From Spirochaetia bacterium (GTDB lineage Bacteria; Spirochaetota; Spirochaetia; SZUA-6; Bin103): DNA of 64,000 nucleotides. Positions 3,663 through 64,000 of this stretch are shown here, piece after piece. The stretch covers positions 1,184,001 through 1,248,000 of the forward strand of contig OZ241863.1 in the NCBI GenBank assembly GCA_965203055.1, read 5' to 3'. Numbering within the stretch: position 1 is the first letter of the stretch; every line of letters begins with the position of its first letter. The notes below the pieces were generated by a model. That model had not been told where the DNA came from. It searched no databases and saw nothing but the letters and a program-made list of their open reading frames with translations. The translations under genes were made by a program, and so were the position numbers.

Positions 3663-4193
3663 CTATCCCGGGCGCACCAGTCGCCAGAGGGCGCGGCGCG
3701 CGCTGTCGATGGCCAGGAACGGACCCGGCGGCAGCCGCCGGTCGCGCCAGCGCACCTCGAAGTGCAGATGCGGTCCGGTGGCGCGGCCGCTCTGGCCGGC
3801 GGCGCCGATGCGCGCCCACTTCACCACCGGCCGGCCGGCGCGCGTGTTCGCGGCGTCCAGATGGGCGTACAGGGTCGAAAATCCCAGCCAGTGGCGAATG
3901 ATGACGTAGGTGCCCAGGGTGGGGCTGTGCCCCACCGCATCGACGATGCCGCTCTTGGCCGCGCGCACAGGACTGCCGCGCGGCGCGCCGAAGTCGATGC
4001 CCTTGTGAACTTCCAGCGCCAGCGGATTCCCGCTCTCCGGCCGCGTGCGCAGGAAGTAGCGTGAGGTGACCGGTCCCGATACGGGCCGCACGTACGGCGG
4101 GATCACCAGATTGAACGCCAGTGCCAGCAGCGCGATGCGCAGCAGCCATCGCCGCCGTCGCGGCGCAGGCGGCGCGCGCGCAGCCCGCTTCAC
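3663..4193 (-). CDS. M23 family metallopeptidase
   Basis: 'HKGIDF', 'TLYAHL', 'ATGPHLHFEVR'; GTG start at 4193 overlaps the stop of the upstream HEPN gene (GTGA). Confidence 0.9.
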   Translation of the reverse strand: MKRAARAPPAPRRRRWLLRIALLALAFNLVIPPYVRPVSGPVTSRYFLRTRPESGNPLALEVHKGIDFGAPRGSPVRAAKSGIVDAVGHSPTLGTYVIIRHWLGFSTLYAHLDAANTRAGRPVVKWARIGAAGQSGRATGPHLHFEVRWRDRRLPPGPFLAIDSARRALWRLVRPG

Positions 4194-45204: not shown

Positions 45205-45343
45205 AGGCTATCCTCCATTCCACCGCAGCATACCACGCTTACCGGCCCGGCGGTTGCAAGCCTACCCGGAACTCGCTACACACACGTCATCAGCCGCACG
45301 AAATAATGAACATGCCTGACTTGACGCGAAACGGAACGCCACC

Positions 45344-48019
45344 ATGCTGCAACTGACGCTGCGCGACGAGTTTCGAGGCCGCCGCCTCAAGGGCACCGCC
45401 ATCGAGCTGGCGAACGCCAACCGCACGGGCGCCACGCAGATGGCGGCGGCCGACTTCCTGGAGATCACTTATCCGTCGGCGGATGCCCTGAAGGCGCTCG
45501 AAGCCACCGGCTCCGGGCAGGGCCGGCCCCTGGTGCTGATCGGCGAGCGCGGCCAGGGCAAGTCGCACCTGCTGGGGCTGCTGTTCCACGGCTTTCGCGC
45601 TCCGGACGCGACCCGCCGCTGGCTGGCGGCCTGGGCCGATCGTCTCGGCGCCCCCGAGCTGGCCGCGATGCCGTTGCGGGACGGGATGTACGTCATCAGC
45701 GAGAGCCTCCACCGCCAGCACTACAAGTTCCTCTGGGATCTGCTGTTCGACCGTCACCCGCACGGGGCGGAGGTGCGCGGCATGTGGAGGGGCCGCGGCG
45801 AACGGCAGACCGACGTGCCAAGCTACGACCTCCTGCTCGAACTGGTGACCCACACGCCCACGGCGCTGGTCCTCGACGAGTTTCAGACCTGGTACGACGG
45901 CCTGACCAACACCAGGCAGTACCCGTGGCGCAACTGGGCGTTCAACTTCGTGCAGCTCCTCTCCGAGATCGCCGCAGCGCATCCGGACCGGCTCGTACTG
46001 GTCGTGTCGGTGCGCGACGGCGGCACCGACGCCTATCAGCAAATCCAGCGGGTGGGGCCGGCCCTGGTCGACTTCAAGGGTCCGACCGCGCGGCAGGACC
46101 GGCAGAAGCTGCTCCTGCATCGCCTGTTCGGCAACCGCCTGCAGGTCGCCGAGGCGCAGATCGAGGAGCTGATCGCAGTCCACGCCGCCGAGTACCTGCG
46201 CCTGCGGCAGGCTCCGCCGGCGGAGCACGACCGGCTTCGGCGCGAGTTCGTCCGCTGCTGGCCGTTCGCCCCCCATCTCATGCAGCTCCTGGAGGATCAG
46301 GTGCTGATCGCCACCCAGGCCCAGGAGACCCGCGACCTGATCCGCATCCTCGCCGATCTGTTCAAGCGCCATGCGGACCGCCCGATCATCACTGCGGCCG
46401 ACTTCCGCCTCGACGACGAGCGGAGCGGCATCGCCGCGCTGCTCGATTCGGTGTCGAACCGGCACCACGCCGCCCTGCGCGAGAAGGCGCAGCGCAACCT
46501 GTCCGCGGTGCGCGACGCGGTCCGCAACGCGGACGCGGTGGTGCCGCACCTGGCGGAGATCGTGGGCGCGCTCTGGCTGCGGTCGCTGGCGGTCGGCAAC
46601 CTGGCCGGCGCGGAGCCGGCGACGCTGCAGATCGACGTCACCCGCGGCGAGGCGATCGATGACAACGCCTTCCAGGTCGAACTGGCCACGCTCGAGAACA
46701 ACAGCTTCAACATTCACCGCGCCGGGCCGCGGCTGGTCTTCCGCGAGGAGGAAAACCCGCAGGCGAAGCTGATCGCCAGCGCCCGCAACGACCGACTGTT
46801 CGGCGACGGAGCCGACCACGACCGCCTGGCGCGGGAGGCGCGCTACGTGATCGGCGGCCAGGAAGGGGTTGCCAAGACGTTTCGGGTCGTGGTGCTGCCG
46901 GAGCGCTGGCAGACCGCGCCGTGGGATGCGTTCGACGAACGCGAGCGCTCGCCGGCATGGGATGAGCGGCTGCCGCTGCTGGTGCTCCCGGACAGCCCCG
47001 ACGAGGCCGGCGCGGCCCTGGGACCGTGGCTCCGCGACCACCTGCAGGCGCGCCGCAACGCGGTGCGGTTCCTGCTGCCGCGCGCCGGCAGCGCCAACCT
47101 CTATCACGACCCCGACCTGCTGGTGCCGGCGCGCGCCGTGGTGCTGGCGGACCGGTGGCGGACGCAGGAGCCGGAGTATCGCGCGCTGCTCGGCCGCTAC
47201 CAGCGCGAGCTGCGGGAGGCCCTCGGCAAGCGCTTCGACCGCTTCGCCATAATCGACACCTGGAACTACCGGGAGCCGGCCTCGTGCACGTTCCACGTCG
47301 AAGCCCTCCGGGGGAAGGGCGCGATACCGGACGCAATCGACGAACAGGTGCGCGACGATCTCTTCATTCCCGAGGAGTTCGAGGCGCTGGTGCGGGCCGC
47401 GGCGAACCGCAGCGAGGCGGTGGGCAAGCTGCTGCGCGAGCTGCAGGAACCCCGCCCGGCGGGCGCGCCGTGCATTCCCTGGCTGGGCGAGACGGAGCTG
47501 AAGGAGCGGCTCATCCGCCTCTGCGCGCGGGGCGAGATCGCGCTCAACCTGCGCGGCATGGAGCACCTGCAGGCGCGCGCCGACGAGCATGAGGAAAGCG
47601 CCTGGATGCGGATGCGCGGCAAGCTCGGCACCGGGAAGCACCTCGACGAGACCTACCTGCTGCGCCCGCAGGCCGCGCCGCACGCCGGCGGCGTGTCGAA
47701 GGACGACTCCCTCAAGGAGGGAGACGAGCCGGGCTGCGACCCGCGGCCGCGCGGGACCGAAGGCGGCGGCACGACCCCGCCGGACCGGCCGGGCGCCATC
47801 TTCGGCGGCGGCGCCGAGCTGGTGGAGCACGCCGCCGATGCCACGTCCGCGCTGAACCTGCTGGGAAAGATCGAGTCGTGGGGCATCGGCGCCGGAACGC
47901 AGGTGCAGGACGTGGCGCTGAAGGTCGGCTCGTTGACCGGCGCGCAACTCGCCGCGCTGCTGCGCACCCTGCCCGACGGGATCACCTACGAGCTCCGCCT
48001 CAACCGGGAGAAGCAGTAA
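45344..48019 (+). CDS. DUF499-like / BrxC-related P-loop ATPase
   Basis: Walker A 'GERGQGKSH', Walker B 'LVLDEFQ', 'WPFAP' (YPFHP-like), 'QETRDLIRILA'; 891 aa. Confidence 0.8.
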   Translation: MLQLTLRDEFRGRRLKGTAIELANANRTGATQMAAADFLEITYPSADALKALEATGSGQGRPLVLIGERGQGKSHLLGLLFHGFRAPDATRRWLAAWADRLGAPELAAMPLRDGMYVISESLHRQHYKFLWDLLFDRHPHGAEVRGMWRGRGERQTDVPSYDLLLELVTHTPTALVLDEFQTWYDGLTNTRQYPWRNWAFNFVQLLSEIAAAHPDRLVLVVSVRDGGTDAYQQIQRVGPALVDFKGPTARQDRQKLLLHRLFGNRLQVAEAQIEELIAVHAAEYLRLRQAPPAEHDRLRREFVRCWPFAPHLMQLLEDQVLIATQAQETRDLIRILADLFKRHADRPIITAADFRLDDERSGIAALLDSVSNRHHAALREKAQRNLSAVRDAVRNADAVVPHLAEIVGALWLRSLAVGNLAGAEPATLQIDVTRGEAIDDNAFQVELATLENNSFNIHRAGPRLVFREEENPQAKLIASARNDRLFGDGADHDRLAREARYVIGGQEGVAKTFRVVVLPERWQTAPWDAFDERERSPAWDERLPLLVLPDSPDEAGAALGPWLRDHLQARRNAVRFLLPRAGSANLYHDPDLLVPARAVVLADRWRTQEPEYRALLGRYQRELREALGKRFDRFAIIDTWNYREPASCTFHVEALRGKGAIPDAIDEQVRDDLFIPEEFEALVRAAANRSEAVGKLLRELQEPRPAGAPCIPWLGETELKERLIRLCARGEIALNLRGMEHLQARADEHEESAWMRMRGKLGTGKHLDETYLLRPQAAPHAGGVSKDDSLKEGDEPGCDPRPRGTEGGGTTPPDRPGAIFGGGAELVEHAADATSALNLLGKIESWGIGAGTQVQDVALKVGSLTGAQLAALLRTLPDGITYELRLNREKQ

Positions 48020-48044
48020 GGTGCTCTGTCGTGGAGGATGACCG

Positions 48045-48476
48045 GTGAGTGACATCTACAGCGCTGCGAAACGAAGCGAGATCATGAGCCGGGTGCGCTC
48101 GACCGGAACCAAGCCGGAGATGCTCGTTCGCCGACTCGCCCATAGCCTGGGGTACCGCTTTCGCCTGCATCATGACGGCCTTCCCGGCAAGCCTGACCTC
48201 GCATTTCCCCGTCACCGCAAGGTAATCTTCGTCCATGGCTGCTTCTGGCATCAGCACGAACGATGCGCCAAGGCAACAATCCCGGCTTCCAACCACGCCT
48301 TCTGGGAGCGGAAACTGTCCGGAAACGTAGAACGGGACCGGCAAAACGTGGCGTCATTGTGTCGGAGCGGCTGGCAGACCTTGGTAATATGGGAGTGTGA
48401 GACGAGAGACCGCGACGCGCTCGCCACCCGCGTCCGTGCCTTCCTCGAATTCCCGGCATTGAGATGCGAGACGTGA
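48045..48476 (+). CDS. vsr: Very short patch repair endonuclease
   Basis: 'RSEIMSRVRSTGTKPE', 'LPGKPD', 'FVHGCFWH', 'VIWECE'. Confidence 0.95.
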   Translation: MSDIYSAAKRSEIMSRVRSTGTKPEMLVRRLAHSLGYRFRLHHDGLPGKPDLAFPRHRKVIFVHGCFWHQHERCAKATIPASNHAFWERKLSGNVERDRQNVASLCRSGWQTLVIWECETRDRDALATRVRAFLEFPALRCET

Positions 48477-49537
48477 ATCCCGGCGTCAAGGTATTCGATT
48501 TCTTCTCCGGCTGCGGAGGAGCAAGCTGCGGGTTTCGTGCCGCCGGCATGGAAATCGTGTACGCGCTTGACCGCGACTCCGACTCCGCACGCACGTTCCA
48601 GATAAACTTCCCGTCATCATATTTCGAGCGTAAGGATATTCAGGAGGCGTCCGTCGATACGGTGCGCCGCTTGATCGATGACCTAAGACCGGCCCCGATC
48701 CTGTTCTGCGGTTGCGCGCCATGTCAGCCGTTCACCAAACAGAACACCACGCGACCGGAACCGGATAAAGACGATCGAATTACATTGCTTTCTCACTTCG
48801 CCCGCTTCATCGAAGAATGCAATCCTGACATCGTATTCGTCGAGAACGTGCCTGGTCTACAACGCCCGAACGGCTCACAGCCCTTTGCCAGTTTCCTGGA
48901 TACCCTCGAAGCCTCCGGCTATCAGTCTAAGTATGACGTGGTACCGCTCATGCGGTACGGTGTGCCGCAGAGCCGGCGCAGGCTCATGATGCTGGCGAGT
49001 CGTCACGGACCGATCGAACTGCCTCCGGAGACGCACGGACCGGGGACCGATAATCCGCGGTACGAGACGGTGAAGGACTGGATCGGAGAACTTCCCCCGA
49101 TCGCTGCCGGGGAAAGCCATCCGCAAGTCTCTGATCATCGAGCGGCGAGCCTGTCGCAGCGCAATCTGGAACGGATACGCGCGACACCGGAGGGTGGCGG
49201 ACACCGCGGTTGGCCAAGACACCTGAAACTTCCGTGTCACGAAAAGAGCGGGGGATACAGCGACGTCTACGGCCGGATGTCATGGGATCGTCCGGCCGCC
49301 GGGTTGACGACACGCTGCATCAGTTACTCCAATGGACGCTTCGGACACCCGGAACAGGATCGCGCGATTAGCTTGCGTGAAGCCGCGTCATTGCAGACGT
49401 TTCCGCTTGATTTCGTGTTCACGGGAGGTTTCGGATCGATGGCGCGGCAGATCGGCAACGCGGTGCCGGTGCGGGTGACACAAGTGATCGGAAACCATGT
49501 CAACGGACACCTGAGAGATGTGAAGGTGCCGGCGTAG
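48464..49537 (+). CDS. DNA (cytosine-5) methyltransferase
   Basis: 'DFFSGCGG', 'APCQPF', 'ENVPG', 'PQSRRR', 'REAASLQTFP', 'QIGNAVP'. Confidence 0.95.
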   Translation: MRDVNPGVKVFDFFSGCGGASCGFRAAGMEIVYALDRDSDSARTFQINFPSSYFERKDIQEASVDTVRRLIDDLRPAPILFCGCAPCQPFTKQNTTRPEPDKDDRITLLSHFARFIEECNPDIVFVENVPGLQRPNGSQPFASFLDTLEASGYQSKYDVVPLMRYGVPQSRRRLMMLASRHGPIELPPETHGPGTDNPRYETVKDWIGELPPIAAGESHPQVSDHRAASLSQRNLERIRATPEGGGHRGWPRHLKLPCHEKSGGYSDVYGRMSWDRPAAGLTTRCISYSNGRFGHPEQDRAISLREAASLQTFPLDFVFTGGFGSMARQIGNAVPVRVTQVIGNHVNGHLRDVKVPA

Positions 49538-49538
49538 A

Positions 49539-52517
49539 ATGGCGACCTTCAAGACCAGCGCCAGAACGCTCGACATGCTCGGTCGCCAACAGATAGCGGG
49601 GATTCCAACGGCGATCAGCGAGCTATTCAAGAACGCGCACGACGCGTACGCCGACCGGGTAGAGATCGACTACTACCGGAGCGACGGGCTGTTCGTGCTG
49701 CGCGACGACGGCATCGGCATGACCAAGGCCGAGTTTACTGAGCGATGGCTTACCATCGGTACCGACAGCAAGGTCGACCCTCAGAAACGGAGCGGTCTTC
49801 ATCATTCCTCCGGCAGGCCACGACGGCCGATATTGGGAGAAAAAGGTATCGGTCGCCTGGCGATCGCCACGATCGGCCACCAGGTGCTGGTACTGACGCG
49901 CGCCAAACGCAACGGTACGTTGTCGGACCTGACGGCGGCGTTCATTAACTGGAGTATCTTCGCGTGCCCGGGAATAGACCTCGACGACATTCGTATTCCG
50001 ATTCGCAGTTTTCGCGGCGGAGAGTTGCCGAACGCCGAGGAGGTGGCCGAGATGGTTGCCGACTTCCGGCACGGTATTGGGCGACTGAAAGCAAGGATCG
50101 ACCGTGATCACTACGAGCGCATCGAGCGTGAATTGGATCGATTCAAGGTCGATCCTCAGGACATCGATGGCTACCGTCGCGCTCCGACGCTCCGCGCATC
50201 AGGGGCCGGCACGCACTTCATTCTGCTTCCGGCTTCCGATCTGCTCGCTGAAGACATTGACGTTGATCCTAGTGTCGATAAAGAGCCTCGACTGACGAAA
50301 GCGCTGCTGGGCTTCGCGAATACCATGTCGATCGACAAGCGGGAACCGGTCATCCGTACCGCCTTCAGAGACCATAGATCGAATGTGCTCTGCAATGACC
50401 TGATCACTGAGCGTAAGTTTTTCACTCGGGAAGATTTTCGCAACGCGGATCATCAGGTAACCGGAAAGTTCGACGAGTATGGTCAGTTTACCGGTCGCGT
50501 AGCGATATACGGAGATACGATCGAGGACCACGTCATACCCTGGCGCAATCCGGACGGACGGCCTACGGCGTGCGGTCCGTTCGACATCAGTTTCGCCGCG
50601 GTCGAAGGAGAGGCCAGACATTCCACGCTTCCGCCGGAGGAACACGCGTCGATCGTGGACAAGACCAATCGGTTGGGCGGTCTGTACATATTTCGTGATG
50701 GCATCCGTATTCTGCCGTACGGGGATACCGACTACGACTGGCTCGACATCGAGTTTCGACGGACGAAGAGCGCCTATTACTACTATTTCTCTCACCGCAA
50801 GATGTTCGGGGTCGTGGAAATCGATTCCGAGCGCAACGGCGGTCTTCACGAGAAGGCCGGCAGGGAAGGCTTTCGAGAAAACAAGGCATATCGTCAGCTC
50901 CGTAGTATCTTGCGCAACTTCTTCGTGCAGATGGCAGCCGACTTCTTTCGCAAGGAAGGCGCGCACAGCGATCGTTTCGAGACGCGGAAGGCGGATCTGG
51001 AGAAGACGGAGATGGACCGGCGGCGGCGGGAAAGACTCGTTTCCGTGAAGCGCCGCCGCATGATGGATGACCTCGGCACGTTTTTCGCGCGGGTGGAGCG
51101 AGGTGAGCCGGAGGACCGGGCACTGCGGCTGAGCCAGAACGTCGAGGACCAACTACGGAACGCGCTTCGCATGGAAGATCCACAACAGGCGGCGCAGGAG
51201 ATCATACGCATCGAACGGAGCGCTGCGGCTGACCTGCGTGACCTGGAGGCGCGCTATCGCGTAGCGCGGCCGAAGGTCGCTTTGACCAAGGCACTGCAGC
51301 GGGAGTGGCGCGCGTACACTGCCGCGTCCGCCGAGCTCGAGACCAATGTATTTCGGGAAACACGGGAATCGATCGAGGATCTCATCAGCGACGAGGCGGA
51401 GAAGGCCCGCCTGGAACTCGATCATCGGCTGCGGATGGAGACGACCCTCAACGAACTTGCGGAACACGCCAGGAAGGAGACGCGCCACCGCGGAGCCGAG
51501 GCGCGACGCAAAGCCGACTCGATGGCGCATGAGGTGCGCACAGCGGCGACGGCGTGCATCAGGGAGGTCGAGTCGGCATTGCGGTCCGTAGTCGTCGACT
51601 TCCAACGCACGGAGTTGTCATCGTTCGAAAACGATGAGTTCCGGCGTATACGCGAGCGGTGGGAATCGAATATACGCGAGGTGTGGGAGAAACGGTCGAC
51701 GCGCCTCGAATCGATTCGGTCGCAGCTCGAGGCAATAGATCTGAGCGGTGCGGCGTCGACGCTGGAGGACCAGCTCGTTGCCGTCGAACAACGAAACGTG
51801 CTGCTGGAGGAGGAAGCGGCCGTCGATCTCCAGCTAGCTCAGCTTGGCATGGCGGTCGAGATCATAAACCACGAATTCCGGGCTACGGTCGGTTCGCTGC
51901 GCAACAATCTGCGGGGACTCAAGGCGTGGGCGGACGTGAACCCGGGACTCAAAGGGCTCTATCGGAACATACGGGCCAGCTTCGATCATCTTGACGGGTA
52001 CCTTACGCTGTTCACGCCGCTGCATCGACGGCTCTACCGCAAGGAGGTCGAGATCCTCGGTTCGGAGATATACACCTTCCTGAAGGATCTGTTCAACGAA
52101 CGGCTTGCGCGCCATGACGTGAGGATGTCACGGACCGACGCCTTTTCCGAATCCGTGACGATAGGCTACCCGTCATCCTTCTACCCGGTGTTCGTCAATC
52201 TGGTCGATAACGCGATCTTCTGGCTGTCGCAACGGAACCCTACCGAGGAGCGGACCATCGAACTCGATGCCGCGCAAGGAGCGTTTATGATAAATGACTC
52301 AGGTCCCGGCATACCTCGACGAGACCGGGAGGCGATCTTCGAATACGGTTTCACCAGGAAGCCCGGCGGACGAGGGATGGGCCTAGCCATATCCCGCGAG
52401 ACGCTACACAGGGTAGGCTATGATCTCACGCTGGCAGAACCCGCGGCGAACGGCGGAGCGACGTTCCTGATTAGTCCACACAATACGCACAAGGAGCGAA
52501 CCAACGGTGCCAAATAA
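49539..52517 (+). CDS. MORC-like GHKL ATPase fused to a C-terminal histidine kinase
   Basis: N-terminal 'ELFKNAHDA', 'DDGIGM', 'GEKGIGRLA'; coiled coil; C-terminal H-box 'INHEF', 'NLVDNA', 'DSGPGI', 'GRGMGL'. Confidence 0.85.
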   Translation: MATFKTSARTLDMLGRQQIAGIPTAISELFKNAHDAYADRVEIDYYRSDGLFVLRDDGIGMTKAEFTERWLTIGTDSKVDPQKRSGLHHSSGRPRRPILGEKGIGRLAIATIGHQVLVLTRAKRNGTLSDLTAAFINWSIFACPGIDLDDIRIPIRSFRGGELPNAEEVAEMVADFRHGIGRLKARIDRDHYERIERELDRFKVDPQDIDGYRRAPTLRASGAGTHFILLPASDLLAEDIDVDPSVDKEPRLTKALLGFANTMSIDKREPVIRTAFRDHRSNVLCNDLITERKFFTREDFRNADHQVTGKFDEYGQFTGRVAIYGDTIEDHVIPWRNPDGRPTACGPFDISFAAVEGEARHSTLPPEEHASIVDKTNRLGGLYIFRDGIRILPYGDTDYDWLDIEFRRTKSAYYYYFSHRKMFGVVEIDSERNGGLHEKAGREGFRENKAYRQLRSILRNFFVQMAADFFRKEGAHSDRFETRKADLEKTEMDRRRRERLVSVKRRRMMDDLGTFFARVERGEPEDRALRLSQNVEDQLRNALRMEDPQQAAQEIIRIERSAAADLRDLEARYRVARPKVALTKALQREWRAYTAASAELETNVFRETRESIEDLISDEAEKARLELDHRLRMETTLNELAEHARKETRHRGAEARRKADSMAHEVRTAATACIREVESALRSVVVDFQRTELSSFENDEFRRIRERWESNIREVWEKRSTRLESIRSQLEAIDLSGAASTLEDQLVAVEQRNVLLEEEAAVDLQLAQLGMAVEIINHEFRATVGSLRNNLRGLKAWADVNPGLKGLYRNIRASFDHLDGYLTLFTPLHRRLYRKEVEILGSEIYTFLKDLFNERLARHDVRMSRTDAFSESVTIGYPSSFYPVFVNLVDNAIFWLSQRNPTEERTIELDAAQGAFMINDSGPGIPRRDREAIFEYGFTRKPGGRGMGLAISRETLHRVGYDLTLAEPAANGGATFLISPHNTHKERTNGAK

Positions 52518-54081: not shown

Positions 54082-54100
54082 GGCGCAACCGGGAGACGCA

Positions 54101-55141: not shown

Positions 55142-58100
55142 AGATCGACCTGCGGATGCCGGCACGCAACGGAACCACGAAAGCGGCGCGGCTGGCCGCG
55201 GAGATCGCCCGGGCGGTGGACGCCGGCCGGCCGCGGGCGCTTCCCACCGTGGACTTCGCCGATCCCGATCGCCCGCGGACCTGCCTGGAGGTCGACTTTC
55301 CGATCCTGCCGGTGAATCAGGTGGCGGCCATCGAGGGCAACGCCGGCAAGCCGATCTACCAGATGTCGAAGTGGTGGGCGCGGCGGCGGTCGAGCGTGTT
55401 CCGGGCGCTGCTGATCGCCGCCGCGGCCAAGGCGCCGGACGATCCGGCCGCCGCGGCAAAGCAGGTCTGGGACGCCTACTACGGCAATCACTCCGAGGGC
55501 GGCGCGTTCGCCGGTCTCAAGGTCGCCGACCTGTTCATGGGCGGCGGCACCACCATCGTCGAGGGCGCCCGCCTCGGCATGGAGATGTACGGCACCGATC
55601 TCAACCCGGTCGCCTGGTTCGTGGTCCGCAACGAGCTGGCCGAGGTCGAGCGGTCCGAGGTGGAGGCGCTGCTCGCCGCGGTCGAAGCCGAGGTGCGCCC
55701 GGCGATCATGCCGTTCTACGCCTGCGACTGTCCGCGCGGCCACTCTGGAACCTGGACCCGGCGCGCGACCGGCGAGGCGATGGGACCGGAGTTCGATCCG
55801 CTGGCGCTGCGCCCGGAGCAGCGGGCCGAGTACGACTACGCCGGCCCCGAGGCGATCTACGTGTTCTGGGCCAAGCACGGCCCCTGTCAGGTGACCGGCT
55901 GCGGCCACCGCACGCCGATCATCACCGCCCCGGTCATGGCCGTGAAGACGCTCACCGTGAACGCCTGGGCGCACCGCTGCCGCGCTTGCGGGCGCCCGTT
56001 CGAGGTGGAGGAGCAGGACGCGCGCATGGCGCCCGGGGCGCCGCTGGTCGCCGCCGCGTCGGAGGCCGCCTACGCGGTGCGGCAGGCCGACTTCTCGGTG
56101 CGCTGCCCGCACTGCGCGGCCTGCGAGCCCGTGGTCTCCCCCGACCGCACGCCGCGGCGCAAGAAAGTCGAGCTGGCGCTGTTGATTCATCCGCAATGGC
56201 TGGCCGGGGAGGCCGGGCGGGCGGCGGACGGCGCGCGCTACGGCGGCTCGGTAGCCGACGACGCCGCGTCCACGGTCCGGTGGAACGGCGCCCGCGCCGC
56301 CCGCCTGCGGCTGCTCGAAGTGCGCGGCCCGCTGCCGGAGGAGGTGACCTGCCCGGAGACCGGCCAACGCTTCAAGACCGGCAAGGCGGGCGGCACGGTC
56401 CCGGCGAAGTCGCGCTTCGCGTGCGGCGCCTGCGGCACGGTGCAGGACGTGTTGACCGCGATCAAGGCGTCCGGCGCCACCGGCCCGGTCGCCGCCTACG
56501 CGCTGCAGGGGTATTGCCCGACGTGCGCCGAGGAGCGGCGCCCCTACCGCGGGCGGTTCTTCGCCGCGGTCGACGACCCGCGCCGCTTCGACGCCGCGGC
56601 GCGCGAGTGGGAACGGCGCAAGGAGCAGGACCTTGCGGCCTGGTGGCCGCGTCAGGAGGTCCCGTACGGCTACATGACCGGGATGGCCAACGGCGACATT
56701 CGCCAAGGCCATGGTTTCACTCACTGGTGGACGATGTTCAACCCGCGCCAGCTCCTGGTCCACACCCAGTTGCTGCGCGCCATCGTCGCCGCGGAACCGG
56801 AGCGCCATCGGTGGCCGGCGCGCGAATACGTGCTCGGCGCGTTCCAACAGTACCTGCGCAACCAGAGCATGTTTTCGTTCTGGCATCGTGCGCGCGATCA
56901 CTTCGCTCCCGCCCTTTCCAACAGCAACTATCATCCAAAGGACATATCCGTCGAGGTGGGGGTTTACACGGGCGTGGGCTACGGTACTTGGCCGTCTACC
57001 TACTCACGCCTTATCGATGCGTCTGAGTGGGCCGGGGCGCCGTGGGAGGTCGTGGCCAATGCGCGCCTGCGCCAGCAGGCGCCGGCGCTGCGGGACCGGC
57101 TCGCCGGCAAGAGCGAGAAGGTGTTTCCCGCGGATCCGGTACGCGGGCGGCGGGCAACGCTCGAGTGCCGGTCGGCGACCGACTTGGCCGGCATCCCGGA
57201 CGAGGCCTACGACTTGGTGGTCACCGATCCGCCGTTCGGCGGTCTGCTGCACTATAGCGAGCTGGCCGACTTCTTCTACGTCTGGCTGCGGCTGGCGCTG
57301 CGCGACCGCTATCCCGATCGGTTCACGGCCGAACACACCCCCAAGAGCCTGGAGGCGGTGGCCAACCGGGCGCGCCACCCGGATGCTCCCGACGCCTTCT
57401 ATCGGCGCCTGCTGACCGCCTGCTGGCGGGAGGCGGCGCGCATCCTCAAGCCGGGCGGGCTGCTCACGTTCACCTTCCATCACAGCGAGGACGCGCCGTG
57501 GGTGGCGGTGCTGGAGAGCCTGTTCGACGCCGGCTTCTACCTGCAGGCGACCTATCCGATTCGCAGCGACGAGACCAAGGGGAGGGGCGAGTTTGGCTCC
57601 AAGAAGATCGAGTACGACATCATCCACGTATGCCGCAAGCGCCGGGAGGAACCGCCGCGGGTGAGCTGGGCCCGGATGCGCCGCCAGGTGCTGGCCGACG
57701 TGCGCCACCTGCAGGCCCTGCTGGAGCTGCACCGGCGGAACGGGCTGCCGGAGGCCGACCTGCAGGTGATCCGGCGCGGCAAGGCGCTGGAGTACTTCAG
57801 CCGCCACTACGGCCACGTGTACGTCAACGTGGGCGAGCCGATGTCGGTGCAGGAAGCACTGCGGGGAATCAACCAGCTCCTCGACGAGGAACTGGGCGGC
57901 GCCGGCGATCCGCCGCCGCCCGCCGCCGAGCCGTTCACGCGCCAGTTCCTGCGCCTGTTCGACGGCCGCACCGAGGTGCCGCGCGACCAGCTCCAGAAGT
58001 TGCTGCGCGGCACCGGCAGCGCGCCGGGAGACTTCGCGGAGCGCGGCTGGTGCCGGCAGGAGACCCGGGTCTACCACCTCGTGCCGCCGCGGGAACTGGC

Positions 58101-58404
58101 GCAGGCCCGGATCGACAACCCCGCCGGCATGGTGAGCGACTACGACCAGGCGGCGTTCCTGATCGGCGCCTGCTGCGACGACAGCGGCATCAACGTCACC
58201 GCTACGCTCGACAACGGCAACTTCGCCCAGCATCCCGCCCTGGGCGCGCTGCTCGACTGGTTCGCGCGCCGCGGCGCGACTGACGAGACCCGCACCGCGG
58301 CGGACCGGGCGCGCCGCCTCCTGCGCGACTGGAACGCCCGCAACCGCGACCGGCGCCGCGACCCGCAGCGCGAACTGTTCGTCGACCAGGAAGCGGCGTC
58401 GTGA
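55138..58404 (+). CDS. DUF1156-type adenine DNA methyltransferase with zinc ribbons
   Basis: 'SKWWARR', motif I 'DLFMGGGT', motif IV 'TDPPFG', 'YSELADFFYVW', several CxxC pairs; start CTG 55138 or ATG 55156. Confidence 0.85.
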   Translation: MKIDLRMPARNGTTKAARLAAEIARAVDAGRPRALPTVDFADPDRPRTCLEVDFPILPVNQVAAIEGNAGKPIYQMSKWWARRRSSVFRALLIAAAAKAPDDPAAAAKQVWDAYYGNHSEGGAFAGLKVADLFMGGGTTIVEGARLGMEMYGTDLNPVAWFVVRNELAEVERSEVEALLAAVEAEVRPAIMPFYACDCPRGHSGTWTRRATGEAMGPEFDPLALRPEQRAEYDYAGPEAIYVFWAKHGPCQVTGCGHRTPIITAPVMAVKTLTVNAWAHRCRACGRPFEVEEQDARMAPGAPLVAAASEAAYAVRQADFSVRCPHCAACEPVVSPDRTPRRKKVELALLIHPQWLAGEAGRAADGARYGGSVADDAASTVRWNGARAARLRLLEVRGPLPEEVTCPETGQRFKTGKAGGTVPAKSRFACGACGTVQDVLTAIKASGATGPVAAYALQGYCPTCAEERRPYRGRFFAAVDDPRRFDAAAREWERRKEQDLAAWWPRQEVPYGYMTGMANGDIRQGHGFTHWWTMFNPRQLLVHTQLLRAIVAAEPERHRWPAREYVLGAFQQYLRNQSMFSFWHRARDHFAPALSNSNYHPKDISVEVGVYTGVGYGTWPSTYSRLIDASEWAGAPWEVVANARLRQQAPALRDRLAGKSEKVFPADPVRGRRATLECRSATDLAGIPDEAYDLVVTDPPFGGLLHYSELADFFYVWLRLALRDRYPDRFTAEHTPKSLEAVANRARHPDAPDAFYRRLLTACWREAARILKPGGLLTFTFHHSEDAPWVAVLESLFDAGFYLQATYPIRSDETKGRGEFGSKKIEYDIIHVCRKRREEPPRVSWARMRRQVLADVRHLQALLELHRRNGLPEADLQVIRRGKALEYFSRHYGHVYVNVGEPMSVQEALRGINQLLDEELGGAGDPPPPAAEPFTRQFLRLFDGRTEVPRDQLQKLLRGTGSAPGDFAERGWCRQETRVYHLVPPRELAQARIDNPAGMVSDYDQAAFLIGACCDDSGINVTATLDNGNFAQHPALGALLDWFARRGATDETRTAADRARRLLRDWNARNRDRRRDPQRELFVDQEAAS

Positions 58405-58922
58405 ACCTGCAGCAGGGCGACGTCTGGAAGCGGCGCGGCTGCTCCCTGCTGTGGGACGCCGCCGCCCTGGCGGCGGTGACCGCGCCGGCCGCGGTCGCCT
58501 CGCTGCGGCAATTCTTCGCCATGACCCGCGCCTGGCCGAGGGAGCTGCCGGGCGCCGGCGGCGACGCGCTGGTGGTGGCCGGCGTGGAGGGGTGTCTGGA
58601 CGCCCTGAGCGGCGCCGACGGCCGGACCTGGCTGGAGACCGACCTCAAGCCGGCCCTGCTGAGCTTCCAGGATGAGTATGAGGGGCAGGCGGCGCTGATC
58701 CTGTGGCTGCCGTCGGGCCGCAGCCGCATCCGCATGGTCACCGCCACCGAGGAGTACTTCTGGCACGACGACCGCGCCGCGGCCTCCGGCGGGCTGCCGC
58801 TCGGCCGCTGCCTGTGGGCCGGCGCCGAGTCGGACGCGGCGCGCATCATCGTCTCCGCCGCGCCGCAGCCCGATGTCGACGGTCCCGCCTGGGCCGGCCT
58901 CTACCACCCGCGCCTCTCATGA
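58401..58922 (+). CDS. Hypothetical protein of the DUF499/DUF1156 operon
   Basis: GTGA-coupled to the methylase; 173 aa alpha/beta pattern. Confidence 0.75.
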   Translation: MNLQQGDVWKRRGCSLLWDAAALAAVTAPAAVASLRQFFAMTRAWPRELPGAGGDALVVAGVEGCLDALSGADGRTWLETDLKPALLSFQDEYEGQAALILWLPSGRSRIRMVTATEEYFWHDDRAAASGGLPLGRCLWAGAESDAARIIVSAAPQPDVDGPAWAGLYHPRLS

Positions 58923-58968
58923 CGGGCTATATTGAGTGACACGTGCAGGTAAGATAGAGGAGATACAA

Positions 58969-59895
58969 GTGTCGAAACTGTTTGACAATGCCGTCCAGTC
59001 GATCAAACTTGGGCTTGAGGACTATGAAGCGAACGACCCGACGCGGACGCTGTCTGCAATTCGCAACTTCTATGCAGGCCTGCTGCTACTCTCAAAGGAA
59101 GTCCTTGTACGGGCCGTACCCGGTGCCGATGAATGGGATGTTATAGCTGCCAATTATAAGCCCAAGCGCAACAGAGCAGGCGTCATAAAATATGTCCCAC
59201 GAGGCAAGGTCAGTATCGACCTGAATGGTATCGGGGAACGCTTTAACGACTTTGGATTGAATATTGACAAAGAGGCGCTGAAAAAGATCGGTAATATTCG
59301 CAATAATGTCGAGCACTACTTCTCGACGGAGAAGAACGATTCCATGCGATTGTTGATCGCCGCAGCGTTCCCCGTTGCCTACGAGTTGTTTCTTCAGGCT
59401 GGTGAAGAACCCCATCAAGTCCTAGGAGACGCGTGGGAGACGATGTTGGAAGAACGTACGATCTACGATAAGGAACAGAACGAGTGTTCTAAGACATTCT
59501 ACAAGATCGACTGGGTATCCGATATCTTGTCCACCGTACACTTGGTTTGCCCGGAGTGCCAGTCCGATTTGGTGGCACAAAAAGACAGCGGAAACACGAA
59601 TAAACAAGAGATTGATGCTGAATGTCGCTCGTGTGAAGTGACGATCAGCGCCGAAAGGTTGATCCAAAATATGGCTATTCATCTGGATAGTGGCGATGGA
59701 ACTTTGCGGACGTGTCCAGAATGTAGCTTAGCTACCTACATCATGAATGACGATGGCAAAGACGAAATCGGATGTGTTTGGTGCGAATGTAAGCTGGGTA
59801 ATTGCAAATCCTGCGACAGTAAACTAACGCCGGATTACGTTGGTGAACGTAACGACCTGTGTTTTTACTGCGAATATAATCTGGAAGGGGACTAA
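58969..59895 (+). CDS. Putative HEPN-like nuclease with C-terminal zinc ribbons
   Basis: GAGGAG RBS; helical N-domain with RxxxxH 'RNNVEH'; six CxxC pairs; markedly AT-richer than flanks. Confidence 0.7.
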   Translation: MSKLFDNAVQSIKLGLEDYEANDPTRTLSAIRNFYAGLLLLSKEVLVRAVPGADEWDVIAANYKPKRNRAGVIKYVPRGKVSIDLNGIGERFNDFGLNIDKEALKKIGNIRNNVEHYFSTEKNDSMRLLIAAAFPVAYELFLQAGEEPHQVLGDAWETMLEERTIYDKEQNECSKTFYKIDWVSDILSTVHLVCPECQSDLVAQKDSGNTNKQEIDAECRSCEVTISAERLIQNMAIHLDSGDGTLRTCPECSLATYIMNDDGKDEIGCVWCECKLGNCKSCDSKLTPDYVGERNDLCFYCEYNLEGD

Positions 59896-59969
59896 TTCTG
59901 ACCTCGTCAAGGAATGAACGGATTCCTGCGGTAAAGGCTAACGTCCTGCGGTTCGCGCCCGGCGCACGG

Positions 59970-62756
59970 GTGCGCCACGCCGAGTTCGGCGACGGAGTGG
60001 TGATCGGCGCGGTGCGCGGCGGGTACCTGCGGGTATTCTTCGGCGACGGCGAACGGGAGATCCCGGTCGCGGCCGCCCTGCCATCCGTGCCGCGGGCCGA
60101 GCGCGTGCTGGCGGGAGTGGAGGGGAGCGCGGAGCGCCTGCGGCAGGCGTGGCTGGCGTGCGAGGCGCATGCGCTGCCGCTGGCGGAGAACGCCGCGGCG
60201 TTGACCGCGGCGCCGATCGACCTGCTCCCGCACCAGATCGTCCTGACCCACCGGATCGCGACCGCCTCGCCGCGGCGTTACCTGATCGCCGACGAAGTGG
60301 GGCTGGGCAAGACCATCGAGGTGGCGCTGCTGCTGCGCGAGCTGGCCAGCCGCGGCGAGCTGCGCCGCGCCTTGATGGTGGTGCCGGCCGGACTGGTCAA
60401 TAACTGGCACCGGGAACTCAACGAGGTCTTCAACCTGCAGTTCGAGGTGTTCGGCAGCGAGGGCGACGTCACCGACCGCAAGTCGAACGCGTTCGCCAGG
60501 CACGACCGGCTCATCGCCAGCATCGATACCCTGAAGCGGCGCGCCCGGGTGCGGCGCCTGCTCGCTGCGCCGCGCTGGGACCTAGTGGTGTTCGACGAAG
60601 CGCACCACCTGACGGCGCAGCGCTCCGGCCGCACGGTGCGCAAGACCGCGAACTACAAGCTGGCCGAGGCGTTGAAGAACCACGCCCGCGATCTGATCCT
60701 GCTGTCCGCCACGCCGCATCAGGGCGACCACTTCCGCTTCTGGATGCTGGTGCAGCTCCTCAACCCGACGTTGTTCGCCGGCCCCGGCGAGATGGTGGCG
60801 CAGCGCCATCGCCTCAATACGGTCGTGCTGCGCCGCACCAAGGCCGACGCCTGCCGCCCGGACGGCTCGCCGCTGTTCGCGCGCCGCGGGGTGCACACCG
60901 AATCGTTCACCATGACCGGCGCCGAGCGCTCCTTCTACGGCGCGTTGCGGGAATACCTGGAAGAGGGGTTCGCGCTGGCGCAGCGGCAGGGCAATCAGGG
61001 GCGCGCCCTCGGCTTCGTCATGACCATCTTCCAGAAGATCGCCGCCTCCAGCTTCGCGGCCGTGCGCCGCACGCTGCGCCGCCGCTTGCTGATGCTCACC
61101 CTGCACGAGGCGATCCTCAAGGACCGGGAGCTCGACCTCGACGCCCGCACCGCGCTGCACGACGAAGCGCGCGACCTGATCCATGAGGATCAGCGCATCC
61201 CGCGCGGCGATCCGGTGTCCCGCGGCCGCGCGGACGCCGTGCTGGCCGACCTCAAGGTGCGCCTGCTCAAGCGCCTGGACGAGGAGGAGCTGGCCCGCGC
61301 GTCCGACGCCGGCGCGGGCGAGGAGAGCGCCGCGGCCGGCGAGGACGCCGCCGCCATGGCGGTCAACCTGGCGCTGCCGGAGGAACGCCTGCGCATCCGC
61401 GACCTGCTGGCGCGCTTTCCGGAGACGCGCGAAACCAAGGTCGCCAAGCTGTTGCGCGGCCTGGGCGCGCTGTGGGAGCAGAATCCGCGCGAGAAGGTGG
61501 TGATCTTCGCCACCTATCTCGGCACGGTCGAGCTGCTCGGCGCCGAGATCGAGCGCGCCTGTCCCGGCCAGGGCGTGGTGGTGCTGCGGGGCGGGGACCA
61601 CGGCGCCAAGCTGGCCGCCGAACGCCGCTTCCGCCGCGCCGACGGGCCGCGCGCGCTGGTCTGCACCGCCGCCGGGCGCGAAGGCATCAACCTGCAGGTG
61701 GCGCGCGTGCTGTTCAACTTCGATCTGCCGTGGAATCCGATGGACGTCGAGCAGCGCATCGGGCGCATCCATCGCTATGGCCAGCAGCACACGGCGCAGG
61801 TCTACAACCTGGTGCTGTCGGACACCATCGAGGGCCGCATCTTCCTGCTGCTCAAGGACAAGTTGGAGGAGATCGCGCGCACGCTTGGCAAGCTCGACGA
61901 GCAGGGCAACGTCGCCGAGGACCTGCGCACGCAGATTCTGGGGCAGCTCGCCGAGCGGCTCACCTACGACGCCCTCTACCGGGAGGCGCTCTCCGACCCG
62001 GAGCTGCGGCGCACCCGGCAGGAACTGGACGCCGCCATGGCCAACGCCAGCGAAGCGCGCAAGGTGGTGTTCGAGCTGTTCCAGGACCTGGACCGGTTCT
62101 CCCTCGACGACTACCGCCCGTTCGCCAACGTGGACGCCGGGTTCGACCGCATCGTTCGCTTCCTCGGCGCCGCGCTGGCGGAACAGGGCCAGTCGCTGCG
62201 GCGGCTCGACGGAACCACGTTCGCACTCGTCTCGGGGGAGGTCACCGAGGAGGCGCGGTTCACGACCGATCGGGAGCAGGCCCGCGCGCAGGAAGATCTG
62301 GAACTGATCGGCCTCGACCATCCGCTGCTGGTGGCCGCGCTGCGCCGCTGGCAGCGCCTGGAGCCGGAGCAACTCGGCGCCGCGGTGGCCGGCGGCGTGG
62401 AAGCCGGCGGCGCGGCGGGCGGGAACGGCGCGGCGGTCGTCTCGTGGTGGTCGATCCGCATCGACGGCGGGGACGGCGAGCGCCGCTCGCTGGTGCAGCC
62501 GCTGGCCGTCGCCGCCGACGGCCGGCGCCTCCCGCAGTTGGAACGCGAAGGCGCCGGCCTGTTCCGGCGCGCCCCCGGCCCGCCGGCCTTGGCGCCGGCG
62601 CAGCGGCGCGCGCTGTTGCGCGACGCCCTGGAGCCGATGATCCGGCGCGAGCTGGACCAGCGCGGCCTGGTCACCGCCGCCGGCGGCTACACCGCCAAGC
62701 TGGTCGGCTGGATCGAACTTGCCGGCAACGGCGCGGCGGGACAGGGGCCAGGTTAA
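59970..62756 (+). CDS. SNF2/RapA-like helicase
   Basis: 'IADEVGLGKT', 'FDEAHH', 'LSATP', 'EGINLQ', 'EQRIGRIHRYGQ'; true start may lie slightly upstream. Confidence 0.92.
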   Translation: MRHAEFGDGVVIGAVRGGYLRVFFGDGEREIPVAAALPSVPRAERVLAGVEGSAERLRQAWLACEAHALPLAENAAALTAAPIDLLPHQIVLTHRIATASPRRYLIADEVGLGKTIEVALLLRELASRGELRRALMVVPAGLVNNWHRELNEVFNLQFEVFGSEGDVTDRKSNAFARHDRLIASIDTLKRRARVRRLLAAPRWDLVVFDEAHHLTAQRSGRTVRKTANYKLAEALKNHARDLILLSATPHQGDHFRFWMLVQLLNPTLFAGPGEMVAQRHRLNTVVLRRTKADACRPDGSPLFARRGVHTESFTMTGAERSFYGALREYLEEGFALAQRQGNQGRALGFVMTIFQKIAASSFAAVRRTLRRRLLMLTLHEAILKDRELDLDARTALHDEARDLIHEDQRIPRGDPVSRGRADAVLADLKVRLLKRLDEEELARASDAGAGEESAAAGEDAAAMAVNLALPEERLRIRDLLARFPETRETKVAKLLRGLGALWEQNPREKVVIFATYLGTVELLGAEIERACPGQGVVVLRGGDHGAKLAAERRFRRADGPRALVCTAAGREGINLQVARVLFNFDLPWNPMDVEQRIGRIHRYGQQHTAQVYNLVLSDTIEGRIFLLLKDKLEEIARTLGKLDEQGNVAEDLRTQILGQLAERLTYDALYREALSDPELRRTRQELDAAMANASEARKVVFELFQDLDRFSLDDYRPFANVDAGFDRIVRFLGAALAEQGQSLRRLDGTTFALVSGEVTEEARFTTDREQARAQEDLELIGLDHPLLVAALRRWQRLEPEQLGAAVAGGVEAGGAAGGNGAAVVSWWSIRIDGGDGERRSLVQPLAVAADGRRLPQLEREGAGLFRRAPGPPALAPAQRRALLRDALEPMIRRELDQRGLVTAAGGYTAKLVGWIELAGNGAAGQGPG

Positions 62757-62785
62757 GGTATGCTGCCGTCCATGCGGGAGGCTCC

Positions 62786-64000
62786 ATGAGCACGCCGCGC
62801 ATACGGTTTTCCGCCGACATCCTGCGCCGACTGGGCGAGGAGCTGAATCCCCACTTGGACAAGGGGATCGTGGAGCTGGTCAAGAACTCCTACGACGCGG
62901 ACGCGACCTGGTGCCGCATCGAGATGCGCGGAACCGACCGCGCCGGCGGCACCATCATCGTTACCGATAACGGCGACGGCATGACGCCGTTCGAGATCGA
63001 ACAGGGGTGGCTGGTGCTGGGAAGTTCCACCAAGAACGCAGCGCGACGTACGCGGTTGGGGCGCATTCCGGCCGGCAGCAAGGGGTTGGGGCGGCTGGCG
63101 GCCCTGCGCATGGGAACGCGCGCGCTGCTGACCGCCAGACCGCGGACCCATCCTGCGGACGAGTACCGGCTACCGATCGACTGGCGCGCGTTCGAGGCCA
63201 CGGAGCTGGTCGATGACGTAGCGCTGAATATCGACCATGCCGTGAGGTCACCGGACGCCGGCCCCGGCACCGAGATCAGGATCCAGGGATTGCGCAAGCG
63301 GATACAGCGCATGGAGGTCAAGCGTCTGGCGCGCGAACTGATCCTGCTTGCCGATCCGTTCGGCGGCGATCCCGCCGGGTTCGCGCCCACGCTGATCGCG
63401 CCCGACTTCGAAGACTTGGCCCGGCTGGTGCGGAATCGATACTTCGACGATGCCGAGTACCATCTGGCCGCCGGCGTCGACGCGAGCGGCCGCGCGACCG
63501 CGGCGGTGGTCGACTGGAGGGGCCGGCGCCTGTTCAGCGCGGGCCATGACGAGATCGCCGCGGCCGGCGCAGGCCGGCCCTACCACTGTCCCGCGGTCCG
63601 CTTCGACCTTTGGGTCTTCATTCTGAATCGCGCCACCTTCTCCACGAGAACCAGCACCCTGCAGGAAGTACGTCACTGGTTGGGTGAGTTCGGCGGCGTG
63701 CACGTCTATCACAATGGGCTGCGGGTGATGCCGTACGGCAACCCCGGCAACGACTGGTTGGAGATGAACCTGCGGCGCGTGCGCAGTCCGGAGGAACGGC
63801 CGGGAACGAATACCTCCATCGGCCGCGTCGTGGTGACCGATACCGATGCCCGGCTCGTCCAGAAGACCGACCGTTCCGGGTACGTCGAGGAGGAAGCGTT
63901 TACCGATCTGGTGCGATTCGCCCAGGACGCCCTGGATTGGATGGCCAACCGGCGGATGGAGGCAGCGGAGCGGCGCCGCGCCAAGGTGCGTGGCTTCGTC
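62786..64000 (+). CDS. Second MORC-like GHKL ATPase (3' end outside window)
   Basis: Not in ORF track; GGGAGG RBS, 'MSTPRIRFSADILRRLGEEL...VELVKNSYDADA...DNGDGM...GSKGLGRLA'. Confidence 0.85.
   Translation, partial: MSTPRIRFSADILRRLGEELNPHLDKGIVELVKNSYDADATWCRIEMRGTDRAGGTIIVTDNGDGMTPFEIEQGWLVLGSSTKNAARRTRLGRIPAGSKGLGRLAALRMGTRALLTARPRTHPADEYRLPIDWRAFEATELVDDVALNIDHAVRSPDAGPGTEIRIQGLRKRIQRMEVKRLARELILLADPFGGDPAGFAPTLIAPDFEDLARLVRNRYFDDAEYHLAAGVDASGRATAAVVDWRGRRLFSAGHDEIAAAGAGRPYHCPAVRFDLWVFILNRATFSTRTSTLQEVRHWLGEFGGVHVYHNGLRVMPYGNPGNDWLEMNLRRVRSPEERPGTNTSIGRVVVTDTDARLVQKTDRSGYVEEEAFTDLVRFAQDALDWMANRRMEAAERRRAKVRGFV

Follow-up and report, generated by a model that had tools for sequence, protein, structure and literature searches.

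A probable Type-3 BR defence operon with two foreign cassettes in a Spirochaetia genome

Between positions 45344 and 62756 of a 64,000-nt stretch of a Spirochaetia bacterium genome (GenBank contig OZ241863.1, positions 1,184,001 to 1,248,000 of the forward strand; this whole stretch is called the window in the following, and its first letter is position 1), five co-oriented genes raise the question of whether they form a defence system of a new kind or belong to a kind already known, and of how two blocks of other genes came to lie between them. The original prediction, made from the sequence alone, had considered them a poorly described hybrid of bacteriophage exclusion (BREX) and restriction-like loci. 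The hybrid character stands, but the locus cannot be called poorly described, its combination of genes having been named the Type-3 BREX-Related (BR) system in the literature (PMC12839542). It very probably represents an intact member of this DUF499-centred type, presumably working by the mechanism inferred below, with two foreign cassettes lodged between backbone genes that remained unbroken. The backbone genes, for which the letters A (ATPase), B (PglZ), C (methylase), D (173-aa protein) and E (SNF2 helicase) are used, are the following:

45344..48019, + strand: A, DUF499-type AAA+ ATPase, 891 aa (Pfam DUF499, AAA_16)
54101..55141, + strand: B, stand-alone PglZ of the alkaline-phosphatase superfamily, 346 aa, GTG start (assigned by fold, profile and motifs)
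55156..58404, + strand: C, DUF1156-type N6-adenine DNA methyltransferase, about 1082 aa (Pfam, PADLOC, motifs; start probable)
58401..58922, + strand: D, 173 aa, alpha/beta P-loop-NTPase-like predicted fold without Walker A (predicted structure)
59970..62756, + strand: E, Swi2/Snf2 helicase-like ATPase, 928 aa (Pfam SNF2-rel_dom, Helicase_C)

All five open reading frames (ORFs) are present on the + strand as originally predicted, are of full length compared with their homologues, and share a guanine-plus-cytosine (GC) content of 0.71-0.77, whereas the whole window has 0.684. The two predicted interruptions of lower GC content are found as well, cassette 1 (48020-54085, 6.07 kb, GC 0.593) and cassette 2 (58925-59948, 1.02 kb, GC 0.481). 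From 45344 to the window end, every long ORF with family support lies on the + strand. Overlapping stop and start codons, which had been assumed throughout the middle three genes, exist between C and D (a true GTGA at 58401-58404) but probably not between B and C: the stop codon TGA of B occupies 55139-55141, the codon at 55138 is CTG, and relatives of C begin with M-A/P at the position matching ATG 55156, 14 bp past the TGA of B. Because the starts in the relatives align to this ATG, C probably starts there and not at 55138, such that the two genes would not overlap.

The assignment to Type-3 BR follows from composition and gene order, which match the definition given by Rakesh & Krishnan (NAR 2026, PMC12839542; bioRxiv Oct 2025) in a computational work that found the type in 569 taxa. 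According to this definition, an active stand-alone PglZ accompanies a DUF499 ATPase, an N6-methylase of the DUF1156 type, and a Swi2/Snf2 helicase from which the nuclease has been lost; 82% of the set also possess a small protein named "iSTAND" (an inactive STAND NTPase). The window agrees with it in the DUF499 ATPase, the stand-alone, active-looking PglZ, the DUF1156 methylase with a zinc-finger insert as target-recognition domain, a small Walker-less protein of NTPase-like predicted fold, the nuclease-free Swi2/Snf2 helicase, and the wide, patchy distribution; it differs in its two embedded cassettes, and D is a candidate for the iSTAND.

Conservation of the gene set was surveyed in 80 loci encoding relatives of B, with one genome per species and with counts taken only over loci with enough flank (single loci are cited by L-numbers). 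These loci span Acidobacteriota, Spirochaetota, Planctomycetota, Myxococcota, Pseudomonadota, Verrucomicrobiota, Actinomycetota, Nitrospirota, Synergistota, and others. Together with B, A occurs in 71 of 72, C in 66 of 67, D in 62 of 65, and E in 59 of 61 loci; all five genes are found in 55 of 59, always in the order A-B-C-D-E and on one strand, an arrangement far beyond chance. The backbone genes of the original prediction thus do co-occur across many phyla. Exceptions are L041 (without A), L019, L054, and L083 (without D), and L026 and L054 (without E), and no further conserved gene was found in the related loci on either side of the five.

Concerning A, the DUF499 family predicted for it is matched in Pfam at E 3.1e-6, above the gathering score of 23 bits, together with AAA_16, and DUF499 was matched in 24 of 26 homologues. 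The Walker A motif reads GERGQGKS and the Walker B motif LDEF; among 26 sequences, G67, G70, G72, K73, and S74 of the former and D178 and E179 of the latter are invariant. Residues 781-810 are the least conserved stretch of the ATPase among relatives and likely constitute a target-recognition or sensor segment.

Concerning B, the prediction of a short stand-alone PglZ is borne out by fold, profile, and homologues. The AlphaFold2 model (pLDDT 90.8) is in Foldseek closest to the PglZ domains of PorX (E 1.3e-9, prob 1.00), followed by the BREX PglZ 9zn5_B (E 7.3e-7) and then by nucleotide pyrophosphatases. A profile of 36 members of the family matched, among Protein Data Bank (PDB) sequences, the BREX PglZ 9nv3_C at E 2.5e-4 with the DHG and HGG motifs aligned, and PorX more weakly than this. 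With 8,000 candidates scored, the family reaches 2,084 clusters at E <= 1e-3, and a precomputed match to PF08665 (PglZ) exists in 33 of the 120 homologues listed. D96, S99, T131, D237-H238-G239, and H325-G326-G327 are invariant in the 36 sequences. As judged from alignment and predicted fold, B is a stand-alone PglZ with intact motifs, having conserved putative metal-site residues and no fused domains. It is longer than its relatives of about 335 aa because of a low-complexity insert at about 271-300, which these lack and which is modelled with low confidence.

C shows both the DUF1156 family and the DPPF motif originally predicted, the former weakly (E 9e-4) next to Pfam N6_N4_Mtase. Its PADLOC matches are HmaB (E 1.5e-38) and PglXI (E 1.7e-22), and the NCBIfam model DUF1156_antiphage is hit at E 1e-26, far under its cut-off. 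FxGGGT (133-139), DPPF (697-700), and several cysteine pairs in between are invariant among 24 sequences, and this spacing fits a methylase with a long zinc-finger insert. Against PDB sequences, the profile of C matched only a stretch of 30 residues around the S-adenosylmethionine motif of small methyltransferases. Least conserved among relatives are residues 301-390 and 601-690 (about 56056-56325 and 56956-57225), likely target-recognition or sensor segments, and DNA alignments of the window to close loci break within C at 56834-57039. In a Desulfobacteraceae locus (L043), C is cut to a fragment (7% coverage), and a 1,049-aa Type IIG restriction-methylase (L043:11841-14990, + strand) is situated between PglZ and the small gene; possibly, this enzyme replaces the specificity/modification part.

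D possesses no Walker A motif and no family match in Pfam, NCBIfam, or PADLOC. Foldseek returned no PDB match of its model at E <= 1e-3, the best E of its profile against PDB sequences was 0.98, and against 1.84 billion representatives only its own family appeared among the best 150 of 361 clusters. BrxB was absent from a Pfam scan of 26 members of the family, and this domain (PF08747) was matched in 0 of 151 genomes of the phylum and not at all in the window's own genome. D is a probable candidate for the iSTAND partner. It is the fastest-evolving of the five proteins, with an identity of 24-28% in the most distant clade, compared to 38-41% for A, 39-40% for B, 43-52% for C, and 55-59% for E.

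E is matched in PADLOC by HmaA (E 7e-94), but only at model positions 79-690 of 1176, i.e., without the C-terminal 486 positions, as well as by BrxHI/HII (E 2e-93) and DrmD; its nearest solved relative is RapA (E 6e-39). An SNF2 helicase with no obvious nuclease had been predicted, and scans of the whole protein and of its C-terminal 318 aa revealed no nuclease family, the latter part giving no significant family match of any kind. The match to NCBIfam phospholipD_antiphage covers only residues 464-644, i.e., the helicase core, and lies far under the cut-off.

Some observations weigh against the reading as a functional Type-3 BR. A matched neither the HmaC nor the BrxC model of PADLOC, and its profile found nothing among PDB sequences at E <= 0.01. 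B has no direct match to Pfam PglZ even at E values up to 10 (nor to any NCBIfam or PADLOC model). The apparent loss of the nuclease from E is judged from family scans. Furthermore, a literature search on the names of the system found no experimental paper on Type-3 BR, and every mechanistic step proposed below is taken by analogy with MANTIS and BREX.

Among the known systems, Type-3 BREX, consisting of BrxF, BrxA, BrxB, BrxC, PglXI, BrxHII, and PglZ, follows the same logic, as the window likewise combines a PglXI-like methylase, a BrxHII-like SNF2 helicase, a PglZ, and an AAA+ ATPase. It differs in that the window has no match to BrxA, BrxB, or BrxF and that its ATPase is of the DUF499 type and not BrxC. 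Canonical BREX (types 1-6) is characterized by BrxA, BrxB, sets with BrxL or BrxH, PglX, and a large multidomain PglZ; the PglZ of the window, with 346 aa, corresponds to the catalytic domain, whereas the two solved BREX PglZ chains measure 879-887 aa. Searched against PADLOC, the 19 ORFs of the island yielded no BrxA, BrxB, BrxC, BrxL, PglX, or PglZ, as the original prediction had expected for PglX, BrxL, and BrxA; only PglXI (in C) and BrxHI/HII (in E) were matched.

Hma, i.e., BR type 1, which is said to go back to Payne et al. 2021, shares the core of helicase, methylase, and ATPase, with HmaA and HmaB being the best PADLOC matches of E and C, and is described as having the same habit of hosting embedded defence genes. 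In the window, however, there is neither a match to HmaC nor a C-terminal PD-(D/E)XK nuclease on the helicase, whereas PglZ and the small protein are additional. The only near relation whose mechanism has been worked out is MANTIS (Gao_RL, BR type 2; Shaw et al., bioRxiv 10.64898/2026.09.23.753747). Like the window, it combines a DUF499 ATPase with a methylase of the DUF1156 type, a superfamily 2 ATPase, and a small partner protein. It carries a phospholipase D nuclease on its helicase and no PglZ, whereas the window possesses a nuclease-free helicase and a separate PglZ. Its small protein also belongs to another family, given as DUF3870 in the MANTIS preprint and as DUF3780 in PMC12839542, whereas D has no Pfam match.

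According to the MANTIS preprint, the DUF499 ATPase MtsA loads the methylase MtsC, and MtsB stimulates methylation; 6-bp sites are hemimethylated, and restriction requires all parts and both ATPases. Defence has been shown experimentally for BR types 1 and 2 (PMC12839542; bioRxiv 10.64898/2026.09.23.753747). The window shows intact motifs in the ATPase, the methylase, and PglZ, as well as an SNF2 motor, a conserved small partner, and a tight operon structure. By analogy, A would load C onto short asymmetric sites, and A together with D would license N6-adenine methylation, by which host DNA is marked. On unmethylated incoming DNA, the complex of A and C (perhaps with D) might engage the translocase E and the putative metal-dependent phosphodiesterase/nuclease B, and these two would then stop the replication of the phage or plasmid.

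The step assigned to B has the most serious competitor: possibly, though with less probability than a role in cutting, B is a regulatory or signalling phosphodiesterase or phosphatase comparable to PorX, and phage replication is blocked without cleavage of DNA. Classical BREX was first described as acting in just this way, without cleavage. The Foldseek ranking is consistent with it, since the PglZ domains of the PorX response regulator (E 1e-9) outrank both BREX PglZ (7e-7) and the nucleotide pyrophosphatases, and so is one of the matched PorX entries (7pvk), which is titled as a complex with pGpG; moreover, nuclease activity in the family of B is a prediction for which there is no direct evidence. 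Against this stand the absence of any other conserved nuclease from the operon in the surveyed loci, the argument put forward in PMC12839542 that PglZ replaces the PD-(D/E)XK or HKD nucleases of BR types 1 and 2, and the reports of nuclease activity of type-1 BREX PglZ that are cited there. A signalling role of B would be compatible with the identity as Type-3 BR and concerns the mechanism only.

The two cassettes and the repeats at their junctions comprise the following features:

48001..48019, + strand: left copy of a 19-bp direct repeat, at the 3' end of A including its stop (repeat search)
48045..48476, + strand: Vsr very-short-patch repair endonuclease, 143 aa, first gene of cassette 1 (Pfam Vsr, E 3.9e-29)
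48464..49537, + strand: C5-cytosine DNA methyltransferase, 357 aa, second gene of cassette 1 (Pfam DNA_methylase, E 8e-53)
49539..52517, + strand: paraMORC GHKL ATPase with HEF_HK histidine kinase, 992 aa, third gene of cassette 1 (Pfam)
52507..54081, + strand: Response_reg_2 receiver protein, 524 aa, fourth gene of cassette 1 (Pfam, E 7e-36, residues 16-185)
54086..54104, + strand: right copy of the direct repeat, 17/19 identical, overlapping the GTG start of B (repeat search)
58925..59948, + strand: cassette 2, an insert of 1,024 bp with one PDC-S64 gene (58936-59895, 319 aa; PADLOC)

In cassette 1, the vsr gene, which the original prediction did not list, stands first and runs into the beginning of the C5-methylase gene; this methylase is matched by PADLOC DruM/MTase_II at E 6e-86. 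The kinase protein comprises HATPase_c_3 (residues 24-132), HEF_HK (768-834, E 7e-29), and HATPase_c (880-980), and its N-terminus resembles the restriction enzymes BbrUII/HgiDII in NCBIfam (E 1.2e-19). No family was found for residues 186-524 of the receiver protein (its C-terminal part of 339 aa), for which a Protein Atlas search gave only unnamed clusters. Bellieny-Rabelo et al. 2021 (PMC8011034) describe two-component-like modules of HEF_HK and Response_reg_2 proteins tied to C5 methylases and paraMORC ATPases, and the trio of C5 methylase, HATPase_c_3/HEF_HK/HATPase_c protein, and Response_reg_2 protein of cassette 1 is the same; what differs is that cassette 1 adds vsr and sits inside another defence operon. 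This module does not appear in the main text of PMC12839542, where MORC, GHKL, and 5-methylcytosine (5mC) occur 0 times. In cassette 2, residues 13-306 of the PDC-S64 protein correspond to model positions 8-304 of 305, a full-length match (E 2.1e-45), and the Protein Atlas again returned only unnamed clusters.

Cassette 1 is present in three of 77 related loci (L010, L011, and L021). In a helicase tree of 57 rows, these three and the window make up a single clade (SH-aLRT 100); the cassette was therefore gained once, in the ancestor of this four-locus clade. Cassette 2 occurs in none of the 80 related loci, and L010 has 21 bp at the place of its 1,024 bp; as judged from this distribution, it was inserted more recently than cassette 1. 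Both cassettes are foreign, given their GC content of 0.593 and 0.481 compared to the 0.71-0.77 of the backbone, the occurrence of the first in only three of 77 loci, and the absence of the second from L010.

L010 itself, a metagenome-assembled genome of the Acidobacteriota (Vicinamibacterales), possesses the same operon with cassette 1 (L010:1187-17607, corresponding to window 45343-62740), with DNA identities of 90.5% over 45343-58924 and 95.6% over 59949-62740. The similarity begins at the start codon of A and ends 16 bp short of the stop of E. The helicase tree is strongly incongruent with taxonomy, with near-identical copies in different phyla. Since the similarity to L010 stops at the ends of the operon and the tree disagrees with taxonomy, the comparison points to a recent transfer of the operon as a unit.

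Most likely, the cassettes act as defences of their own or as a back-up, sharing transcription and transfer with the operon. That they are instead wired into the backbone, such that the kinase/receiver pair senses failure or inhibition of BR, or that 5mC and N6-methyladenine are read together, is unlikely, even though their genes lie close to those of the backbone and in the same orientation, at least four lineages of two phyla have retained cassette 1 in the operon, a second paraMORC-kinase module following the helicase is common to the window and L011, and precedents exist with PrrC in EcoprrI and BrxU in BREX (cited in Payne 2024, bioRxiv 10.1101/2024.01.29.577857). The GC content of both cassettes is that of foreign DNA, cassette 1 is absent from 52 of the 55 five-gene loci and cassette 2 from all 80, and the 644 regions with HEF_HK/Response_reg_2 pairs and C5 methylases are described in PMC8011034 with no reference to BR. 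Another reading, weaker than that of the junctions as insertion slots (see below), takes Vsr, the 5mC methylase, the paraMORC kinase, and the receiver as a restriction system under the control of a phospho-relay that would have co-evolved with the BR backbone. Independent defences remain the preferred interpretation.

In the related loci, inserts of more than 300 bp are found at A/B in 3 of 77, at B/C in 13 of 77, at C/D in 5 of 64, and at D/E in 5 of 60 cases. Of the 60 loci extending as far as the helicase, 14 possess at least one insert. Of 33 gap ORFs scanned, 32 are co-oriented with the operon. Identified by Pfam or PADLOC were HepT, MNT, PDC-S13 (Bro-N), PDC-M03A/B, a Type IIG restriction-methylase, DUF1828/PDC-M24B pairs, PDC-M48B metallo-beta-lactamase proteins, bSEFIR, PIN, TumE with an HVO_A0114 partner, a TIR protein (PDC-S35), and MTaX1-HNH; according to the helicase tree, different clades hold different cargo. 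With such varied cargo at the same junctions, clade by clade, the original idea of the backbone as a platform hosting extra defence modules is therefore correct. Several embedded, co-oriented ORFs have no significant Pfam or PADLOC match (L061:16063-17019, L061:10882-11445, L055:14666-15625, L059:14808-15137, L070:13875-14297, and L047:2241-2729 / L054:8832-9326 / L056:1335-1823).

Nesting of defence genes in operons of this kind has already been described: Payne 2024 (bioRxiv 10.1101/2024.01.29.577857) reports that 62.7% of Hma systems contain embedded genes, finds such genes in BREX, DISARM, and Type I restriction-modification as well, and derives the PDC families from them by "guilt-by-embedding", and nested back-up nucleases are listed in PMC12839542. 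By the same logic, the unmatched ORFs are candidates for new defence genes.

Payne 2024 leaves open how genes become embedded without breaking the operon, and here the junctions of cassette 1 offer an observation. The 19-bp repeat has two matches only in the window (<= 3 mismatches), and none of 100 shuffles gave two. In L021, cassette 1 is bordered by a perfect repeat of 18 bp (3877-3894 and 9991-10008), whereas the repeat is decayed in L010 and L011. Because the junction of A-stop and B-start is duplicated, each of the two flanking genes retains its end and its ribosome-binding context. Among 26 insertions tested for repeats, clear ones were found only at cassette 1 (window and L021); the signals in L070 and L039, both at C/D, are weaker, and a PIN cassette at D/E of L038 has a probable imperfect repeat of 26 bp (about 20/26; 14793-14818 and 15496-15520). 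The remaining tested insertions are at shuffle level. That a mechanism which copies the junction makes these sites genuine insertion slots is a tentative and rather doubtful suggestion. If it were general, it would explain the embedding of defence genes without breakage of the host operon, and true slots would make the unannotated embedded ORFs of the relatives good new defence candidates. Junction duplication is not claimed as a general rule, given that most of the 26 tested insertions were at shuffle level.

Whether the locus might nevertheless be an undescribed hybrid of BREX and Hma can be answered with some firmness: this is very unlikely. PADLOC-DB 2.0.0, Pfam, and NCBIfam do miss A (beyond the weak DUF499), B, and D; with these three unrecognised, a PADLOC-based annotation of 2023 would therefore see at most a methylase and a helicase. 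However, the same five-part composition has been defined, named, and counted in 569 taxa (PMC12839542), and a claim of novelty for the locus is ruled out by that definition. The kind was already catalogued in 2025-26; new here are the 19-bp junction duplication at cassette 1, the near-identical operon in Acidobacteriota, the probable start of C at 55156, and the vsr gene. That the operon serves the host in gene regulation or repair, as an epigenetic or chromatin-remodelling system, is hardly credible, for although RapA is closest to the SNF2 protein among solved structures and a role in defence is deduced here by analogy, the branching of the helicase tree departs strongly from taxonomy, near-identical copies occur across phyla, toxin-antitoxin and defence genes are nested in the operons of relatives, and defence activity is experimentally shown for BR types 1 and 2 (PMC12839542; bioRxiv 10.64898/2026.09.23.753747).

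Type-3 BR constitutes the simplest known pairing of a bare PglZ with a methylase, an AAA+ loader, and a translocase. The function of PglZ is a long-standing question in BREX, and a compact, widely transferred version of five genes makes it testable, with cultivable homologues available in Acinetobacter sp. (L064), Vitreoscilla massiliensis (L063), Fodinicurvata halophila (L030), and Alcanivorax sp. (L079). The window copy adds little to the published catalogue; it documents which junctions take cargo, a paraMORC-kinase two-component-like restriction module that travels inside the operon across phyla, and at least one insertion that left a duplicated junction.

The island is bordered by the following genes:

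44446..45204, - strand: Uma2-family putative endonuclease (Pfam Uma2, E 2.5e-19; PADLOC PDC-S03, E 1.3e-9)
62786..64000, + strand: 5' part of a second paraMORC GHKL plus histidine-kinase gene (HATPase_c_3, histidine kinase)

The Uma2 gene, on the opposite strand, forms the left border, with corrinoid and URO-D metabolic genes further left. No tRNA genes are located near the island of the window or near L010, L011, or L021. Directly upstream of A, at least 12 of 58 related loci possess a small helix-turn-helix gene, absent from the window and its three closest relatives, which is probably an operon regulator. It is excisionase/MerR-like in L018:7045-7293, L035:2853-3095, L040:6975-7244, L064:7059-7313, and others, and in some loci one of XRE or ribbon-helix-helix type takes its place.

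On the right side, the MORC-like ATPase gene predicted after the helicase does exist, but its start is at 62786, and the frame listed for it (61472-64000) does not hold. The gene encodes 691 aa with a MORC-like GHKL domain (HATPase_c_3), extends 861 bp beyond the window end, and shares 24% identity (E 6e-18) with the kinase of cassette 1. As the first gene of the post-helicase module, it is common to the window and L011. In the stretch that continues the window's own genome rightward (L009), it is followed by a gene for a 220-aa protein and then by a metallo-beta-lactamase-fold gene. About 3 kb further on, after unannotated ORFs, an HNH gene is found, and beyond it metabolic genes of the xanthine-dehydrogenase type. 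With metabolic genes on its left and on its right, the island therefore extends from about 44.4 kb to 69.8 kb in window coordinates. The 220-aa protein begins with a receiver-like ILVVDDD strand, and the second two-component-like module, with the kinase gene, the gene of this protein, and the metallo-beta-lactamase-fold gene, continues in L009:1786-8829.

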